From the sequence record SRR31156797_10354: DNA of 20,000 nucleotides; one strand, 5' to 3'. The notes under the pieces were generated by a model. The model worked only from the letters and a program-made list of their open reading frames with translations. It searched no databases and was not told the origin of the DNA. The position numbers and the translations under genes were made by a program. Below are positions 1,508-18,402 of the stretch, piece after piece (the stretch's first letter is position 1; each line of letters opens with the position of its first letter).

Positions 1508-2686
1508 CTACCCTCGTTCAAAATACAAAAAGAATTTATTTCCCAAAAGGGCGATCATACCAATCAGACATAGCATGCCCCCTGATAAGATCATCTGCAT
1601 CCCTGCTGTTTCATTGCCGCTGACTAGTATCAGCAAGCGTGATGCATAGGGTGCGAGCGTGACCCCTAAATTGTAAGCAACGATCGAGACGATCGTGCCA
1701 AACTTAGCTTCTGCTTCACCACCAGTGGTCAGCAAGTGGGTGAAAAAAGGCATGATGCTGCGAAAGGCAAAGCCTAATAATAAAGAACAACCCAAGAGTA
1801 GCCCCACTGTCTGCAATGGGTAAGTCAAATAGATGCTGCTTCCTGCAAGCAATGCCGCAATGGGCAGCAACCAGCGATGTAGGCGACTGTATATCAAGCC
1901 AAAGGCATTGCCGGCGATAAATGCTCCCGTCGCAATGGCGGCAATCATGTTACTGCCTTCAGTGGCGTCCCCGATTCCTTTTTCCAATAACAATGGTGTG
2001 ATCTGTAAATTGTAATTAATAAATAAGACAACGATTAGAAACAAGAGCACACCCAGAACGAATGATCGCTGTTTCCGTTCTTTTGAAACCGTGACGTTCG
2101 CCAATAACGTCTCATTAGTCACAGCCTGTGTTTCGTTTGGAATAAACAGCTGGACAAAGAAGAGACTGATCAGGGCAAAGCCATAAACCAAGAAGGACAT
2201 TTCCCAACTGATTTTCACTAGCTGCCCAACCAGCAAAGTCATAAAGATACCACCTAAACCACCAACGGCACTTTCTAATCCAAGAGCTTTGGCTTTCTTT
2301 TGCGGCTCATTTTGAAACAGCAAACTAATCATTTGAATCGCCAAACGATTGAATAAGCCGATCCCGAAGCCAAGAATCCCTCGAGAAAGAAACAAGACGG
2401 GAAAGCTCCCCTGATACCATGCCGGCAGCGTGCCAAAAACCGCCACAATGACCAAGCCGGTGACCATCGTGTATTTTTTGCCGATCCTTTTTTCGATCAT
2501 GCTGGTAGTAAAAATCCCCAGTAAAAGAAACAATGATGGAATCGTGGTCAGTAACCCAATGTAGACCGCATCAACTTCTGGGAAGCTTGCCGCAATCGCT
2601 GGGACATTGGCAGAAATCGCCGGTGCCGAATAGACAACCATTGCCACCGACAGCAGTGCCAACAACTTCATAGAAAAAAATTTCAT
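1508..2686 (-). CDS. MFS transporter, about 12 TM, substrate unknown, 392 aa
   Basis: About 12 hydrophobic segments; motif-A-like IEKRIGKK and SRGILGFGIG. Start ATG 2686 follows SD GGAAAGGGG. Confidence 0.85.
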   Translation of the reverse strand: MKFFSMKLLALLSVAMVVYSAPAISANVPAIAASFPEVDAVYIGLLTTIPSLFLLLGIFTTSMIEKRIGKKYTMVTGLVIVAVFGTLPAWYQGSFPVLFLSRGILGFGIGLFNRLAIQMISLLFQNEPQKKAKALGLESAVGGLGGIFMTLLVGQLVKISWEMSFLVYGFALISLFFVQLFIPNETQAVTNETLLANVTVSKERKQRSFVLGVLLFLIVVLFINYNLQITPLLLEKGIGDATEGSNMIAAIATGAFIAGNAFGLIYSRLHRWLLPIAALLAGSSIYLTYPLQTVGLLLGCSLLLGFAFRSIMPFFTHLLTTGGEAEAKFGTIVSIVAYNLGVTLAPYASRLLILVSGNETAGMQMILSGGMLCLIGMIALLGNKFFLYFERG

Positions 2687-2898
2687 AAATACCCCTTTCC
2701 TTAAAAACACCTTTTCTTCCTTGTCTCTGAACCCAATAGTCCAAGATGACAAAGTGATCCTTTCACTACCTTATTATTCGCTAGATTGTCCTCGTTGACC
2801 AATGCTTAACGCGCTTGGGCTTTATGCTTGAAAAGCATTGGTCTTCTGTATTTTACTAGGTTTCTATGGCGATTGCTGGAACTCATTTATGTTTGTCT

Positions 2899-2939
2899 AA
2901 AAAAAAAGAAACCTTGCAGTATGTTTTCTGCAAGGCTTC
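2899..2939 (-). terminator. Intrinsic terminator of the dxs-like gene
   Basis: Stem GAAACCTTGCAG / CTGCAAGGCTTC followed by a long U tract on the minus strand. Confidence 0.8.
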
Positions 2940-2977
2940 CTTCTTTTCATAAATCGACTGTAACTACTCAGAATGCT

Positions 2978-4744
2978 TTAGTGAATTGATTGCTGTAACT
3001 GTTCCATAACGTCTTTCGTAATTGTCTCAACGGTGATACCAAGTTCAGATAAAACGTCCGCTGCCCGGTAATTATCATAAAATTTCTTTTCTAAGCCATA
3101 ATTTTTGACGACAATCTCACGATCACCCAGGTAGCTGGCAATCATTTGTCCATAGCCACCCTCTCGTATGCCATCTTCCAACGTGACAACGAGTTTGTGC
3201 GATCGTGCCACAGCATCCAACAACTCTTTGTCGACCCCTGAAATAAACTTAGGATTGATCACCGTTGGCGTAATTCCATGTTGCATTTTCAATTGTTCTG
3301 CGATCTCTTCCGCTAACGCATAAAAGTTCCCAACACCGACGATGGCTACCTGCGTGCCAGCTTGAGTCACTTCATTTTTTTGATCACTGTAGTCAGTAGA
3401 GACTGTCACTGCCATTTCGTTGACAGGTCCAACCGGTACCCGGATCGCAACTGGTGCGTTGGTTTGTTCCAGCGACCAATCCAACATTGCCAGATATTCT
3501 TCTTTAGAGGTTGGCGCAAGATAAATAAGGTTGGGAATATGTGCCAAAAATGGAATATCAAAAATTCCCAAATGGCTCTCGTCATTCATGCCGTGAATCG
3601 ATGCACCATATACCAGAATCGTTCCAGGCAGATGATTTAAGGCCAAATCATGGGAAATTTGATCAAAACTACGTTGCATAAAGGTAGAAAAAACGGCCCA
3701 GACAGGTTTTGCTCCATTTTTTGCTAACCCAGCAACCATCGATACCGCATGTTCTTCTGCAATACCTACATCTACAAATTGTTTGCCTGCTTTTTCTCTT
3801 TGTTCCGGAGAAAAAAGCAGCATCGGTGTACCAGCGTTTACTGCCACGACTTTAGGATCTGACGCCATTTTTTCTAATAAATAATCCGTCGTTAAGCTAT
3901 TGTACGTTACTTGATTGCCGCCAGTAGAAATATATTCGCCGGTTTCTAAATGAAAGGGACCGCCTGCATGAAACTTTTCACGATTTTCTTCCGCAAACTT
4001 GAAGCCTTTGCCTTTGATCGTATGAATGTGTAATAAAACAGGATGATCAACATCTTTCACTTTTTCAAATAAAGCAATCAATGCAGCGAGGTCATTTCCT
4101 TCATCCAAATAGTGGTACTCAAAACCAATCGCTTTGAACAGATTGTCTGCTGCTTGCCCATTGGTTTCCCGCAATGCCCGCAAATTCTGATACATCCCCC
4201 CATGGTTTTCTGCGATCGATTGGTCATTGTCGTTGAGGACCACGATGGTATTGGTGCCTAATTCCACGATATTGTTCAAGCCTTCAAACGCTAACCCGCC
4301 TGATAGAGAACCATCACCAATCACGGCAACGACGTTATACGTTTCATTTTTTAGGTCACGGGCTTTCGCCACACCATTTGCCAGCGAAACTGACGTGGAG
4401 GTATGTCCGACCGTAAAGAGATCGTGCTCGCTTTCTTTCGGATTCGTGTAACCAGAAACCGCACCATACTGCGCAGCATCAAGAAAGGCATGGGCGCGTC
4501 CTGTCAGCATTTTATGGATATAAGTCTGATGAGACACATCAAAAATCAGCTTATCTGTGGGGGAATCAAAGACTCTATGCAACGCAATCGTCATCTCAAC
4601 CATCCCCAGATTGGGGCCATTGTGCCCCCCATGGTGACTGATTTTTTCCAATAAAGCAGTTCGTGCTTCTACTACCAGTTCTTGAAGTTGCCCACTGGTC
4701 AATTCTTTTAACGCTTTGGGGCTTTTGATTTTTTCTAATAACAT
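2978..4744 (-). CDS. dxs: 1-deoxy-D-xylulose-5-phosphate synthase-like ThDP-dependent enzyme (divergent short type), 588 aa
   Basis: GGHxGxNLG, DVSHQTYIHKMLTGR, GHTSTS, ThDP motif GDGSLSGG...LNDN, TIKGKG, DVGIAEEH and STFMQR. Start ATG 4744 follows SD AGGAGG. The family call is secure; the activity is doubtful (see findings). Confidence 0.85.
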   Translation of the reverse strand: MLLEKIKSPKALKELTSGQLQELVVEARTALLEKISHHGGHNGPNLGMVEMTIALHRVFDSPTDKLIFDVSHQTYIHKMLTGRAHAFLDAAQYGAVSGYTNPKESEHDLFTVGHTSTSVSLANGVAKARDLKNETYNVVAVIGDGSLSGGLAFEGLNNIVELGTNTIVVLNDNDQSIAENHGGMYQNLRALRETNGQAADNLFKAIGFEYHYLDEGNDLAALIALFEKVKDVDHPVLLHIHTIKGKGFKFAEENREKFHAGGPFHLETGEYISTGGNQVTYNSLTTDYLLEKMASDPKVVAVNAGTPMLLFSPEQREKAGKQFVDVGIAEEHAVSMVAGLAKNGAKPVWAVFSTFMQRSFDQISHDLALNHLPGTILVYGASIHGMNDESHLGIFDIPFLAHIPNLIYLAPTSKEEYLAMLDWSLEQTNAPVAIRVPVGPVNEMAVTVSTDYSDQKNEVTQAGTQVAIVGVGNFYALAEEIAEQLKMQHGITPTVINPKFISGVDKELLDAVARSHKLVVTLEDGIREGGYGQMIASYLGDREIVVKNYGLEKKFYDNYRAADVLSELGITVETITKDVMEQLQQSIH

Positions 4745-4969
4745 GTACGTACCTCCTGTAGAAATGTTTGAATGGTTCGTGTGTTTACTCACAAGGAAAA
4801 AGACACGAAATCGAAATGAGTGGATCGTTCTCTAGAATGAAAAACGTGGCCATCAGAGCTAGACGCTCTTTTTAGAATTCCTGTCAAACCAAGAAATAGC
4901 AAGTTATCCTAAAGGGAAATCGTGATTTTTCTGAGTTTTAACAATCGCTGCTCATTTCTTCTATCTAAA

Positions 4970-5000
4970 AAGATACCACCTAGAGTTGACTTTAGGTCAA
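4970..5000 (-). promoter_or_regulatory. MerR-type promoter with AdhR/NmlR-like operator upstream of the dxs-like gene
   Basis: Minus strand reads TTGACC-(19 bp)-TATCTT. The spacer holds the dyad CCTAAAG-TCAA-CTCTAGG (4979-4996). Confidence 0.8.
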
Positions 5001-5063
5001 GCACTTTTTGTGAATTTATTCTATTTTGATCCTATCTTTACTGCGTGCCCGCCATAATGATAC

Positions 5064-5095
5064 AAAAAAAGATAAGAAGCGCTTGCTTCTTATCT
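5064..5095 (-). terminator. Intrinsic terminator downstream of the zeta-like pair
   Basis: Perfect 11-bp stem AGATAAGAAGC-gctt-GCTTCTTATCT with a U tract on the minus strand. Confidence 0.85.
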
Positions 5096-5152
5096 CGGGT
5101 TTTACTTGTTCAATGGTCATTCTTAAGAAACCTAAATTTTTTCATTGACCAC

Positions 5153-5320
5153 TTATTCTTCTTTCTCTAAGCCAACAAGCACTCGCTGTTTACGGTTCGA
5201 TTCTTCTGCAACAAAGTTTAAAACTGTTTTCAATTCGCTAGGCGTTGCCTTTTTCTGTAAGATCGAGAAGTTTCGATGATATTTTATCATGATTGTTTCT
5301 ACTTTTTCTTTCTCAGTCAT
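5153..5320 (-). CDS. Small 55-aa protein coupled to the zeta-like gene (not in the ORF track)
   Basis: Hand translation: MTEKEKVETIMIKYHRNFSILQKKATPSELKTVLNFVAEESNRKQRVLVGLEKEE*. The start overlaps the upstream stop (ATGACTGA), a GGAG SD lies in the upstream coding tail, and a terminator follows. Confidence 0.75.
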   Translation of the reverse strand: MTEKEKVETIMIKYHRNFSILQKKATPSELKTVLNFVAEESNRKQRVLVGLEKEE

Positions 5321-5675
5321 TGAGCTTCTCCTCCAATTCTTCCTTTGTGTATGTTAATGGCAAAGCGAACGATACATTGTCAACTGCCATCAACGTATGA
5401 GAATGGCGATTCTGAAAATCTTTTATAAAAATATTAACGGTCACATTTTCTTTATACAATTCCTTCATTTTAATCAAGTTATATCTTGATTGAAAAAAAG
5501 CATTTATAAAATGTTCTTTAGGAACAAAGCGTCCTTCTATTTTTTCACGTTGCTTCGTATAATTCCAAGCAATAAAAGGATCTTGATAGATATAATAGAT
5601 AAGCACATCATAATTCTTTTTTAAGCATCGCGCAATATTTTGATCAGCTTTTTTAGTGGGTGAAACAAGAATCAT
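5313..5675 (-). pseudogene. 5'-truncated zeta-toxin-family / P-loop kinase-like gene (C-terminal half only)
   Basis: IYYIYQDPFIAWNYTKQREKIEGRFVPKEHFINAF resembles the C-terminal half of zeta-family proteins. There is no Walker A motif, no SD at the ATG, and the segment is AT-rich. Confidence 0.7.
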
Positions 5676-5724
5676 TTATTGCGAGAAGTAAGATGGCAAA
5701 AATTTCTGTTAATGAACTATACGC

Positions 5725-5757
5725 AAAAAAACAGACTACATTTGTCATGCAGTCTGC
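5725..5757 (-). terminator. Intrinsic terminator of the aldo/keto reductase gene
   Basis: Minus strand GCAGACUGCA-UGACAAA-UGUAGUCUGU followed by a U run. Confidence 0.85.
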
Positions 5758-5777
5758 TTTTCCAACTTTTTCTTTAT

Positions 5778-6785
5778 TTAGTGTTTGTCCCACTGTTTTC
5801 CGAAAGATTGTTGTTGTGATTCGACATGTCCTCGATGGCCATATACAGGTATTTGATTCAATTGGTTTTCAATTACTTGAAATTCGGTATCTGTAAGCTG
5901 TACATCCCAAGCAGCTAGATTTTCCAAAATCCTGCCTCGATTTTTTGATCCAGGAATCGGCACTGCATTCGGATACTTGTGAAGCATCCACGCCAATGAA
6001 ATTTGGGCATTTGTCGACTGCTTTGCTTGAGCGACTTCTGCTAGCATATTTAAAATCGGTTGATTGGCTACGAGGTTTTCTTTAGCCAGCTGAGGGACGA
6101 ATTTGCGAACATCATCCCCTTCAAAGGATGTATCTGGTGTGACTTTTCCAGATAAAAACCCACTAGCGATTGGTGAAAAAGGAACGACGGCGATCTCGTT
6201 CTCAAGACAATAGGGGAAAATCTCTCGCTCACAATCACGCTCAACCATTGAATAGAGATTTTGCACAGCACCAACGGGGGTAATCCCATGTGCTTTAGCA
6301 AGTGTCTCCACGGAAACTTGTGAGAGTCCCCATTCTCTGATCATACCTTCTTTGATCAATCGTCCCATCACCTCAGCTATTTCTTCTAAAGAAAGCTGTT
6401 CATTGATTCGATGAAGATAATAGAGATCAACATAATCGGTGCGCAATTTTTCCATTGAAGCAATCAAATGGTTACGGATGGCTGTGTAAAGAGTTGTGCT
6501 TTCATTCACTTCTTTTTCGTCGAGATGATACTTGGTGGCAAGAACAACTTTGTTTCGAAAAGGCGACAGTGCTTTACCCACCAACTCCTCATTATGTCCA
6601 GAATAAAACATTTCTTTTCCATAAGCTTCTGCTGTATCAAAAAATGTACAGCCAAATTCGTAAGCTTTGCGAATAGATGCAATACTCTCTTTTTCTTCTG
6701 GCACCTTTCCATATCCGTGAGAAAACCCCATACACCCCATTCCGATTGGCGAAACTGCTAAACTTCTGATTTTTCTATTCTTCAT
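5778..6785 (-). CDS. Aldo/keto reductase, 335 aa
   Basis: IGMGCMG; catalytic tetrad in FDTAEAY, LATK and YYLHR; PFSPIASGFL; PIPGS...ENL. SD AAGGAGG. Confidence 0.95.
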   Translation of the reverse strand: MKNRKIRSLAVSPIGMGCMGFSHGYGKVPEEKESIASIRKAYEFGCTFFDTAEAYGKEMFYSGHNEELVGKALSPFRNKVVLATKYHLDEKEVNESTTLYTAIRNHLIASMEKLRTDYVDLYYLHRINEQLSLEEIAEVMGRLIKEGMIREWGLSQVSVETLAKAHGITPVGAVQNLYSMVERDCEREIFPYCLENEIAVVPFSPIASGFLSGKVTPDTSFEGDDVRKFVPQLAKENLVANQPILNMLAEVAQAKQSTNAQISLAWMLHKYPNAVPIPGSKNRGRILENLAAWDVQLTDTEFQVIENQLNQIPVYGHRGHVESQQQSFGKQWDKH

Positions 6786-6836
6786 ATTACAATTCCCTCC
6801 TTCATCGATACCTTATGCACTCGTTAAGCTAGCTAA

Positions 6837-6867
6837 ACTTTAGCATCTTCGAGTCACTCGAAGTCAA
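6837..6867 (-). promoter_or_regulatory. MerR-type promoter/operator of the aldo/keto reductase gene
   Basis: Minus strand reads TTGACT-(19 bp)-TAAAGT, with perfect palindrome CTTCGAGT-N-ACTCGAAG at 6847-6863. Confidence 0.88.
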
Positions 6868-6951
6868 GGAGTTTCTAACAATCATTTTTCTTCCACCTTT
6901 TGTCTTTTTGAGGCTCTCAAATAGGAAGCTACTTTTCTCCACAAAATTATC

Positions 6952-6962
6952 TGTGCTATAAT
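6952..6962 (+). promoter_or_regulatory. Extended -10 promoter for the MerR gene
   Basis: TGTGCTATAAT (TRTG-N-TATAAT); the -35 is poor. Confidence 0.65.
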
Positions 6963-7038
6963 ACGCGATATAAAAAGAAAATGATCTACAACAGTTTTTA
7001 CTAATACGTTCAAACGACTTGCTTGACTTCAGCAAATT

Positions 7039-7485
7039 ATGAAAGGCGTGACCAACATTTACTCTATCAAAGAAGCAGCCACGATCACTGAATTGTCTGA
7101 ACACACGATTCGCTATTATACCGATATGGGTTTGGTTCCTAGTTTGATCAGGGACAAAAACAACAGACGGGTTTTTAATCAGACTTCCATCAATTGGTTA
7201 ACTGGTATCAAGAATTTGCGCGAAACAGGCATGTCTTTAGAAGCCATTAAGCATTATATTTCGCTTTGCCTCCTTGGCGATTCGACGATCAAAGAAAGAG
7301 CCGACATCATTCAATCGCAAAAAGAAAAAGCGCTCGTTAAACTTACAGAAGCGCAAAAACGAGTCGCTTATTTAGAAAAGAAAAGCAATACCTATCAAGA
7401 GCTCATCAACCAGAAAACAGCTTCTAACGATCCATTGAATCCGGCAACTTGGGAGGAGGAAGCAGTATTGCGGAATAGAACTTGA
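7039..7485 (+). CDS. MerR family regulator (AdhR/YyaN-like); true start uncertain (ATG 7039, GTG 7048 or ATT 7057)
   Basis: MerR HTH YSIKEAATITELSEHTIRYYTDMGLVP...RDKNNRRVF, then GMSLEAIKHY and a C-terminal coiled coil. Divergent from the AKR gene. Confidence 0.92.
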   Translation: MKGVTNIYSIKEAATITELSEHTIRYYTDMGLVPSLIRDKNNRRVFNQTSINWLTGIKNLRETGMSLEAIKHYISLCLLGDSTIKERADIIQSQKEKALVKLTEAQKRVAYLEKKSNTYQELINQKTASNDPLNPATWEEEAVLRNRT

Positions 7486-7576
7486 ATGAAGATATTTTAC
7501 CAATGATTTGGATCAATAGACACTTAATTTTTTGATGATTATATTCGTATAGTGCTGAAATAGACTATTCATTACT

Positions 7577-17782: not shown

Positions 17783-18133
17783 TCAAAAAAAGTGTTTTGT
17801 TATTTCAGATAATCGTTCTTTCATCTCCGTTGTGACTTTATCGACTACTTCTAAGTTGCTGCGATGCAAGAGGTCCACACTGCGAATATGCTGACAAAGA
17901 ATCGTCCCTTGAACTTTATTCTTTTGTGTTTCGGTAACTGTTTGAAACGCATTCGATCGAGCGAATTTTTCTTCTACATATTTTTTTGAGCTACTGATTG
18001 GCATCACTAAGACGGTATTGAAACTCTTGTTATAATAATCATTACTAACCACCACACACGGTCTTTTTTTTGCCATTTCATTTCCTTTGGTGGGATTTAA
18101 GTCAATAAAAAGAATATCTCCTTGTCTTACCAT
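17783..18133 (-). CDS. mazF: Type II TA toxin, PemK/MazF family endoribonuclease
   Basis: QGDILFIDLNPTKGNEMAKKRPCVVVSN, VMPISS, ILCQHIRSVD; 7-nt overlap with the antitoxin gene. Confidence 0.92.
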   Translation of the reverse strand: MVRQGDILFIDLNPTKGNEMAKKRPCVVVSNDYYNKSFNTVLVMPISSSKKYVEEKFARSNAFQTVTETQKNKVQGTILCQHIRSVDLLHRSNLEVVDKVTTEMKERLSEITKHFF

Positions 18134-18402
18134 TCAATATTCTCCTCACCTAAATCTTCTCCAAAAAACATCTCACCTGTATCAAATTTCCCCGTTTCTT
18201 CTACGATCGCTAATTCTTGTTTCCAAAAATCTTCAAAGGAAGGTGCTGCTTTTTCGCCTGTTACCTTGATCTCGCCTTCTGGAGTAAATTCAAAAATTAC
18301 CCGCTGATTCTCTTTTAAGCCTAACTTTTGCCGCACACTTTTTGGAATAGTTATTTGATTTTTCGAAGTCATTTTCGCTGAAACTTGCGCTTTGATCGTC
18401 AT
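18127..18402 (-). CDS. AbrB/MazE/SpoVT family antitoxin
   Basis: KMTSKNQITIPKSVRQKLGL swapped-hairpin motif, acidic tail ending GEENIEW, SD AAGGGGG. Confidence 0.9.
   Translation of the reverse strand: MTIKAQVSAKMTSKNQITIPKSVRQKLGLKENQRVIFEFTPEGEIKVTGEKAAPSFEDFWKQELAIVEETGKFDTGEMFFGEDLGEENIEW

Follow-up and report, generated by a model that had tools for sequence, protein, structure and literature searches.

An enterococcal DXS-like protein that lacks the glyceraldehyde 3-phosphate ligands and is probably under MerR-type control

[quoted passage not shown] The host of this DXS-like gene was an Enterococcus, and the proteins of other enterococci were 70–74% identical to it. The initial annotation of the locus had proposed that the protein is not a DXS but a different carboligase dependent on thiamine diphosphate (ThDP), and this reading was supported by each computational check that the annotation had suggested. 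The gene and its flanking signals were as follows.

4744–2978, minus strand: DXS-like ORF (588 aa), ATG at 4744 to the stop at 2978.
4757–4752, minus strand: ribosome-binding site AGGAGG, 7 nt 5' of the ATG at 4744, read from the sequence.
4969–4745, minus strand: leader, about 225 nt long, from the predicted promoter to the start codon, with no recognised RNA element.
5001–4970, minus strand: predicted MerR-type promoter, CTTGACC-TAAAGTCAACTCTAGGTGG-TATCTT.
5000–4995, minus strand: −35 element TTGACC.
4975–4970, minus strand: −10 element TATCTT, separated from the −35 element by a 19-bp spacer.
4997–4978, minus strand: dyad operator ACCTAAAGT-ca-ACTCTAGGT, lying between the −35 and −10 elements.
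2935–2899, minus strand: intrinsic terminator with the stem CCTTGCAG/CTGCAAGG, an 8-nt loop and a T-run; the same hairpin was detected on the opposite strand.

The protein contained the Pfam domains DXP_synthase_N, Transket_pyr and Transketolase_C, and the Pfam domain scan showed no flavin or Fe-S domain. The NCBIfam model NF008968 (PRK12315) matched it with 838.4 bits (cut-off 510); this score and the closeness to PDB entry 9KPQ place it in the DXPS-like subfamily. Transketolase models gave values of 41–104 bits against cut-offs of 488–788 (best 104.3 against 488), so the protein is not a transketolase by hidden Markov model. It shares the superfamily and the Transket_pyr and Transketolase_C domains with transketolase, whereas it follows DXPS in the order of its domains and in its N-terminal domain.

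The AlphaFold (AF2) model of the protein had a predicted local distance difference test (pLDDT) value of 93.4. It superposed on 9kpq_B with a template modelling (TM) score of 0.98 and a root-mean-square deviation of 1.1 at 54% identity, and on DXPS structures with TM scores of 0.81–0.91 (D. radiodurans DXPS, 0.90–0.91). The sequence match to 9kpq_A was 705 bits over 588 residues. Entry 9KPQ carries the title 'A ThDP-dependent enzyme belonging to the DXPS-like subfamily' and was released on 2025-08-20. The subfamily is already recognised through the NCBIfam model and this title, and the protein is not new in fold or in cofactor chemistry.

BLASTP alignment with E. coli K-12 DXS gave 33% identity (198/606, 48 gap columns), and the residue equivalences agreed with those of a MAFFT alignment of 201 homologues, so the equivalences to E. 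coli DXS that had been proposed initially hold. The ThDP motif GDG...NDN was retained. E. coli E370, R398, H431 and R475 corresponded to E330, R358, H391 and R435 by BLASTP, and H49, H80, D152, N181 and H299 were retained in the MAFFT alignment, as expected from the earlier description of the cofactor motif and catalytic residues as intact. The acceptor site for D-glyceraldehyde 3-phosphate (GAP) was different, and the positions concerned are listed below.

4472–4474, minus strand: codon of A91, equivalent of E. coli R99 (MAFFT).
3689–3691, minus strand: codon of F352, equivalent of E. coli Y392 (BLASTP and MAFFT).
3605–3607, minus strand: codon of G380, equivalent of E. coli R420, a GAP phosphate ligand lost here (BLASTP and MAFFT).
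3584–3586, minus strand: codon of N387, equivalent of E. coli D427 (BLASTP and MAFFT).
3431–3433, minus strand: codon of V438, equivalent of E. coli R478, a GAP phosphate ligand lost here (BLASTP and MAFFT).
3610–3572, minus strand: motif YGASIHGMNDESH, residues 379–391.
3442–3428, minus strand: motif RVPVG, residues 435–439.

The replacement of Y392, R420, D427 and R478 by F, G, N and V, on which the initial annotation had rested its case, was reproduced by both alignments, and the two motifs lay at the coordinates given for them. Its statement that the segment after NDN is shorter than in typical DXS was also correct, the difference to E. coli DXS being about 32 residues (gaps of 12, 15 and 5 in the BLASTP alignment). 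According to the accessible part of one study (PMC11019550), R420, R478 and Y392 form the conserved GAP-binding pocket of E. coli DXS, R99 is an active-site contact, and the R478A variant has a Km for D-GAP of 1400 µM. Very inefficient turnover by the R420A variant is reported in the accessible part of a preprint (bioRxiv 10.1101/2025.03.03.641193). In its pairwise alignment with the protein, 9KPQ likewise has G, N and A where E. coli DXS has R420, D427 and R478; unlike the enterococcal protein, with its F352, it keeps Tyr at the Y392 position.

Arg or Lys was present at both 420 and 478 in 102 of the 201 aligned homologues and was not present at both in the other 99. After thinning of near-duplicates, 161 of the 201 rows were used for an unrooted FastTree tree, in which a branch with a support of 99 had 68 rows without these basic residues on one side; the other side held 88 rows bearing them and five scattered single-site exceptions. 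A quick IQ-TREE run, also unrooted, used 81 rows picked by hand from the groups of the FastTree tree and separated a 46-row subset of the R-less group from the other rows by a branch that had a value of 100 in the Shimodaira–Hasegawa-like approximate likelihood ratio test (SH-aLRT). Because nearly all R-less rows share one strongly supported branch, the residue losses are not due to chance. The proposal that a tree might show the form without R420 and R478 as a distinct clade was therefore borne out, and by the alignment and both trees the protein belongs to this group of about 580 residues with a short linker (the short form, or short clade).

The change in the pocket extended over the whole clade. 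R99, Y392, D419, R420, D427 and G428 were 91–100% conserved in the 88 canonical rows and altered across the 68 rows of the short clade; conservation of R478 in the canonical rows fell in the same range. The full set of such positions (R99, G103, G252, H257, M346, R362, Y392, D419, R420, D427, G428, Y476 and P537) was 88–100% conserved in the canonical rows, and all 13 were altered across the short clade. Positions 392 and 420 varied freely inside the clade, which is expected if ligand binding no longer occurs there. Basic residues conserved specifically in the short clade were R316, K342, K127 and K553. R316 was considered as a new pocket ligand, but judged from the alignment it is probably not one, given that it aligns one residue away from an R/K pair of E. 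coli DXS (BLASTP).

The need of the host for DXP was assessed in the nearest genome examined (G001; 28% of the 31-mers of the window shared, 4.0 Mb, 100% complete). Its single full-length DXS homologue was the orthologue of the DXS-like gene. A search of this genome for Dxr, IspG, IspH, ThiG and PdxJ, the DXP-related genes whose presence had been left to be checked, found none of the five. HMG-CoA synthase was present with 537 bits, an indication of the mevalonate route. Of 301 evenly sampled Lactobacillales genomes, 30 had the short form (807–979 bits), and Dxr was absent from 26 of these carriers. Three of the four carriers with Dxr (G025, G113 and G230; genus code g16) also had canonical DXS, which was one frame of 647 aa in each of G025 and G113 but was split into two contig-end pieces in G230. 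Listeria-like genomes had the short form besides canonical DXS. The NF008968 profile search was positive in the L. lactis control. For L. lactis, the accessible part of PMC7864038 describes a viable dxsA deletion with changes in minimal inhibitory concentration of at most 2–3-fold, for which the authors assumed a role in the pathway through 2-C-methyl-D-erythritol 4-phosphate (the MEP pathway); this dxsA may be the short or the canonical form.

Compared with canonical DXPS, the protein shows the same three-domain fold, the GDG...NDN motif and the residues H49, H80, H299, E370, R398 and H431, and it passes the cut-off of the DXS model TIGR00204. In contrast, it has only 33% identity and the shortened linker, R420, R478, Y392, R99 and D427 are all replaced, it lies on the opposite side of a branch supported at 99–100%, it occurs in genomes without DXP consumers, and it has a MerR-type operator upstream, of a kind seen at none of 10 canonical groups. 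We regard it as highly probable that the protein is not a physiological DXP synthase and that its clade is distinct.

Promoters activated by MerR regulators have −35 and −10 elements with a 19-bp spacer and a dyad. This arrangement was observed upstream of the DXS-like gene, where the dyad pattern occurred once in the window and in 0 of 200 shuffles. Inspection of 35 upstream regions by eye showed one promoter/operator type in 11 of them, and similar sites were found 5' of the orthologues in E. cecorum, E. columbae, E. gallinarum, 'Ca. E. huntleyi', Listeria-like genomes, Erysipelotrichaceae, metagenome-assembled genomes (MAGs) of Eubacterium and Clostridiales, and further Lactobacillales. A position weight matrix (PWM) was built from 22 distinct sites and gave the window site a score of 34.9. 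At a threshold of 22 bits or more, 40 matches were obtained in 2.79 Mb, all of them in short-form loci and none in 14 canonical dxs loci, a circular comparison in that the matrix was scored on the same upstream regions from which it had been built. When loci were combined into non-redundant groups at 90% protein identity and same-strand matches were counted up to 1.7 kb upstream, the operator was present in 22 of 63 short-form groups and in 0 of 10 canonical groups. From this pattern in the sequence, MerR-type control of the DXS-like gene is probable. Five loci of the genus coded g18 (L096–L099 and L115) had no MerR-type operator, and their DXS-like gene follows a long T-run hairpin right after the preceding gene; control there must differ.

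The leader of about 225 nt was also examined. A thiamine pyrophosphate (TPP) riboswitch or other RNA element was rejected for it, as none of the Rfam matches approached the gathering score of its model and the z-score of the fold was −0.64. Two genes followed downstream.

2752–1508, minus strand: listed ORF of a major facilitator superfamily (MFS) transporter gene, start ATG at about 2685, downstream of the DXS-like gene.
1427–495, minus strand: RpiR/SIS regulator gene, downstream of the MFS gene.
2801–2773: promoter-like site of the MFS gene, between the terminator and the MFS gene.

The DXS-like gene has its own terminator and the MFS gene a separate promoter-like site, so the DXS-like gene is taken as monocistronic. 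Among 80 related loci, the MFS neighbour occurred in 3 and the RpiR neighbour in 2, all from one species group. An operon with both genes was rejected on account of the terminator at 2935–2899, the site at 2801–2773 and this rare co-occurrence, and the two neighbours are probably unrelated to the DXS-like gene. In two of four runs, contigs assembled from RNA libraries included one that spanned the gene unit alone (2955–5111 and 2943–5055), with a depth figure above that of the flanking contigs. These unit-sized contigs are a weak hint at best and show neither start, level nor transcription. Sequence near-identical to window positions 2400–5700 (at least 99% in most contigs) was present in ant-metagenome libraries labelled metatranscriptomic (X1, X2, X3 and X9).

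Regulator genes were found near several of the orthologues. In 7 of 80 loci a MerR gene was located at a distance of up to four genes from the DXS-like gene. It was directly upstream in five (L031, L041, L057, L065 and L070) and, in L022, two genes downstream after an aldo-keto reductase (AKR) gene; in L102, from the order sample, a tblastn match to the MerR of the window was directly upstream. The best NCBIfam model for six of these MerR proteins (L022, L031, L041, L057, L065 and L070) was NmlR, with 92–144 bits and thus under its cut-off of 175, and all six kept the Cys of the NmlR clade. The accessible part of a review (PMC4776306) describes this Cys as absolutely conserved in the NmlR/AdhR clade, which senses carbonyl and/or oxidative stress. 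AKR genes occurred in five loci, and Flavodoxin_4, ABM, flavin mononucleotide (FMN) reductase, rubrerythrin and PF00756 esterase were other recurring neighbours. In many Firmicutes the orthologues were accompanied by reductases of the aldo-keto, short-chain dehydrogenase/reductase (SDR) or zinc alcohol dehydrogenase (Zn-ADH) type.

These loci were compared with the regulons of B. subtilis AdhR (adhA, yraA and yraC) and of H. influenzae and Neisseria NmlR (adhC and estD). They share an activator promoter with a 19-bp spacer and dyad, the clade Cys in the adjacent MerR proteins, and carbonyl-detoxifying oxidoreductases as partners. Unlike them, the regulons described in the accessible part of PMC4776306 hold no ThDP enzyme, and the regulators at the DXS-like loci stay below the NmlR cut-off. 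A locus of an Enterococcus sp. MAG (L020:4294-12300) had six operators on one strand; this island comprised two MerR genes, MFS, DUF4440, a RibD_C-type reductase, the DXS-like gene, NmrA-like, SDR, AKR and Zn-ADH genes, and was adjoined by a nitroreductase gene.

The pattern search in G001 gave four more related operator sites, three of them at MerR+SDR, MerR+AKR and AKR+MerR units. One MerR protein of G001, called C44, was 42–46% identical to three MerR proteins adjacent to DXS-like genes, and the ends ACCTAAA...AGGT recur in the operator of C44 itself. By these similarities it is a candidate regulator of the DXS-like gene. The MerR gene in the window itself was considered as well, together with the features around it.

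7039–7485, plus strand: MerR-family gene.
6785–5778, minus strand: divergent AKR gene.
6836–6869, minus strand: AKR promoter of MerR type, with TTGACT, a 19-bp spacer, the perfect dyad CTTCGAGT-g-ACTCGAAG and TAAAGT.

Both genes lie in a segment of about 2.57 kb (5011–7576), together with a zeta-toxin-family fragment and a terminator at 5096–5069. The segment is absent from E. innesii/E. casseliflavus relatives that keep the dxs-like promoter, and in those relatives potD almost directly precedes that promoter. The operator at the AKR promoter differs from that at the DXS-like gene. The window MerR (7039–7485) is unlikely to be the regulator, given that the segment is missing in relatives, Asn stands at the sensor-Cys position and the nearby operator is different. 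In the same segment, a 120-aa ORF (5313–5675, minus strand) matched only positions 110–186 of the 199-position Zeta_toxin Pfam model; because of this partial match it is read as an N-terminally truncated remnant, and a 55-aa ORF (5155–5320) overlaps its end. The remainder of the window held a MazE/MazF (PemK) toxin-antitoxin pair (17783–18402, minus strand) and housekeeping genes, namely potABCD with an XRE/cupin regulator, split coaBC, an energy-coupling factor (ECF) S-component, murB, and exonuclease III-like and RNase T-like genes.

From its residues, this member of the DXPS-like subfamily is predicted to be catalytically competent as a ThDP enzyme. Because the cofactor-binding and carbanion-forming machinery is intact, activation of a 2-oxo donor on ThDP is still expected, and by analogy with DXPS the most likely donor would be pyruvate. 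The pocket for the phosphate and C2 hydroxyl group of GAP appears to be small and uncharged (R99, Y392, R420, D427 and R478 changed to A, F, G, N and V), so the acceptor should be a non-phosphorylated carbonyl compound. The product made from an aldehyde or dicarbonyl would be an acyloin of lower reactivity, to be reduced in turn by co-regulated reductases. Such chemistry has precedent, since canonical DXPS accepts other aldehydes, nitroso compounds and O2, as described in the accessible part of bioRxiv 10.1101/2025.03.03.641193. The operator, NmlR/AdhR-like MerR proteins and carbonyl reductases accompany the orthologues, and for this reason the most likely role would be in a reactive-carbonyl response. 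The best overall explanation, to which we give about an even chance, is a ThDP-dependent carboligase with a non-phosphorylated carbonyl compound as its substrate, probably within a response to reactive-carbonyl stress. The specific role in carbonyl-stress carboligation is put forward somewhat more tentatively.

The results that weigh against the carboligase reading bear on both the enzyme and its control. The protein passes two DXS equivalog models, TIGR00204 with 494.1 bits (cut-off 465.95) and NF003933 with 627.1 bits (cut-off 395), which explains its automatic dxs label. With the catalytic His/Glu set intact, it might still make DXP (or 1-deoxy-xylulose) by means of an altered acceptor site, its product serving outside the MEP pathway, ThiG-type thiazole and PdxJ-type pyridoxal 5'-phosphate synthesis. 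In favour of this, the short form is the sole DXS homologue of one genome, G173, in which both Dxr and IspG are present, and pdxA adjoins the DXS-like gene in two Bacteroidales loci, from related Porphyromonadaceae MAGs, so a DXP-related role is possible there; as a functional clue, the pdxA neighbour was set aside because it is confined to these two related loci. Compensating basic residues may also be present elsewhere in the three-dimensional pocket. However, none of R420, R478, Y392, R99 and D427 is retained, the clade varies freely at positions 392 and 420, and in E. coli the R478A and R420A variants are impaired as described above. G001 lacks every DXP-consuming enzyme searched for, 26 of 30 carriers lack Dxr, and Listeria-like genomes have the short form on top of canonical DXS. 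The weight of G173 as a counterexample is also reduced by its congeners in genus g5, which belongs to the family of G001. Dxr was present in all five (G037, G165, G181, G212 and G294) and IspG in all four that were searched (not G165; in pieces in G037), and these five genomes, which had split transketolase subunits only, lacked DXS homologues of both types. Dxr in the genus of G173 is hence not tied to the DXS-like gene, and continued DXP synthesis by the protein is improbable. The g5 genomes look like an Enterococcaceae genus with an apparent MEP pathway and no recognisable source of DXP.

With regard to control, the matrix scoring was circular, as stated, and 41 of the 63 short-form groups had no operator match; by record titles these include all Bacteroidota-titled groups, Gemella and the four-genome g18 group L096. 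The operator is also missing in Lactococcus and Bacteroides. A register-shifted variant of the operator was seen by eye in the Bacteroidota-labelled loci L041 and L070. The window has no MerR gene with the conserved Cys. In the literature searched, which excluded subscription journals and supplements, we found no biochemical data or substrates for the DXS-like protein or its clade, which likewise counts on this side. That literature also yielded no paper on 9KPQ or a bacterial 'DXPS-like' subfamily, on the separation from DXS in lactic acid bacteria, or on a link of dxs to NmlR/AdhR regulons. New here are the single-gene unit behind a predicted MerR-type promoter and the recurrence of the operator at short-form genes.

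Two further explanations depart from the stress response or from carboligation. The MFS and RpiR/SIS genes downstream on the same strand and the transketolase-superfamily fold could suggest ordinary carbon metabolism, in which a ketol-transferring or cleaving ThDP enzyme would act with these neighbours on an imported sugar-like compound and have no link to stress. The terminator and the promoter-like site set the MFS gene apart, MFS and RpiR occur in 3 and 2 of 80 loci from one species group, the best transketolase score (104 against 488) is far under the cut-off, and the feature conserved across taxa is the MerR-type operator and not the sugar genes; we consider this explanation unlikely. The enzyme could also be mainly a redox enzyme that decarboxylates pyruvate on ThDP and passes the enamine electrons to a quinone, a nitroso compound or O2 without forming a C–C bond. 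Canonical DXPS forms peracetate in an O2-dependent manner and reacts with nitroso compounds (bioRxiv 10.1101/2025.03.03.641193, accessible part), and genes for flavodoxin-like proteins, FMN reductase, ABM monooxygenase, rubrerythrin and nitroreductase are among the neighbours in Bacteroidales and Enterococcus. However, the protein has no flavin or Fe-S domain, and the commonest co-regulated partners are carbonyl reductases (AKR, SDR and ADH), which match an acyloin product better, so that a mainly redox role also appears improbable.

The carboligase reading can be extended to the whole group. DXPS-like enzymes could constitute a widespread, overlooked defence against reactive carbonyls, in which pyruvate-driven, aldehyde-scavenging carboligases under Cys-sensing NmlR/AdhR-type MerR regulators would convert formaldehyde, glycolaldehyde and methylglyoxal into acyloins, to be finished by AKR, SDR and ADH enzymes. 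This generalisation is speculative and we hold it to be rather doubtful; if it is true, the label 'dxs' is mistaken in thousands of cases among lactic acid bacteria, clostridia and gut Bacteroidales. As the protein clears the cut-offs of both DXS equivalog models, metabolic reconstructions may assign DXP synthesis in error to Enterococcus, Lactococcus, Gemella, Listeria and many anaerobes of the gut. Efforts to develop antibacterials target DXPS, and for these the existence of paralogues whose pocket differs matters with regard to selectivity and species dependence. A DXPS scaffold independent of GAP is of interest for acyloin biocatalysis. The conserved MerR-type operator offers a route to the substrate of the clade, by way of an electrophile that may induce the gene.

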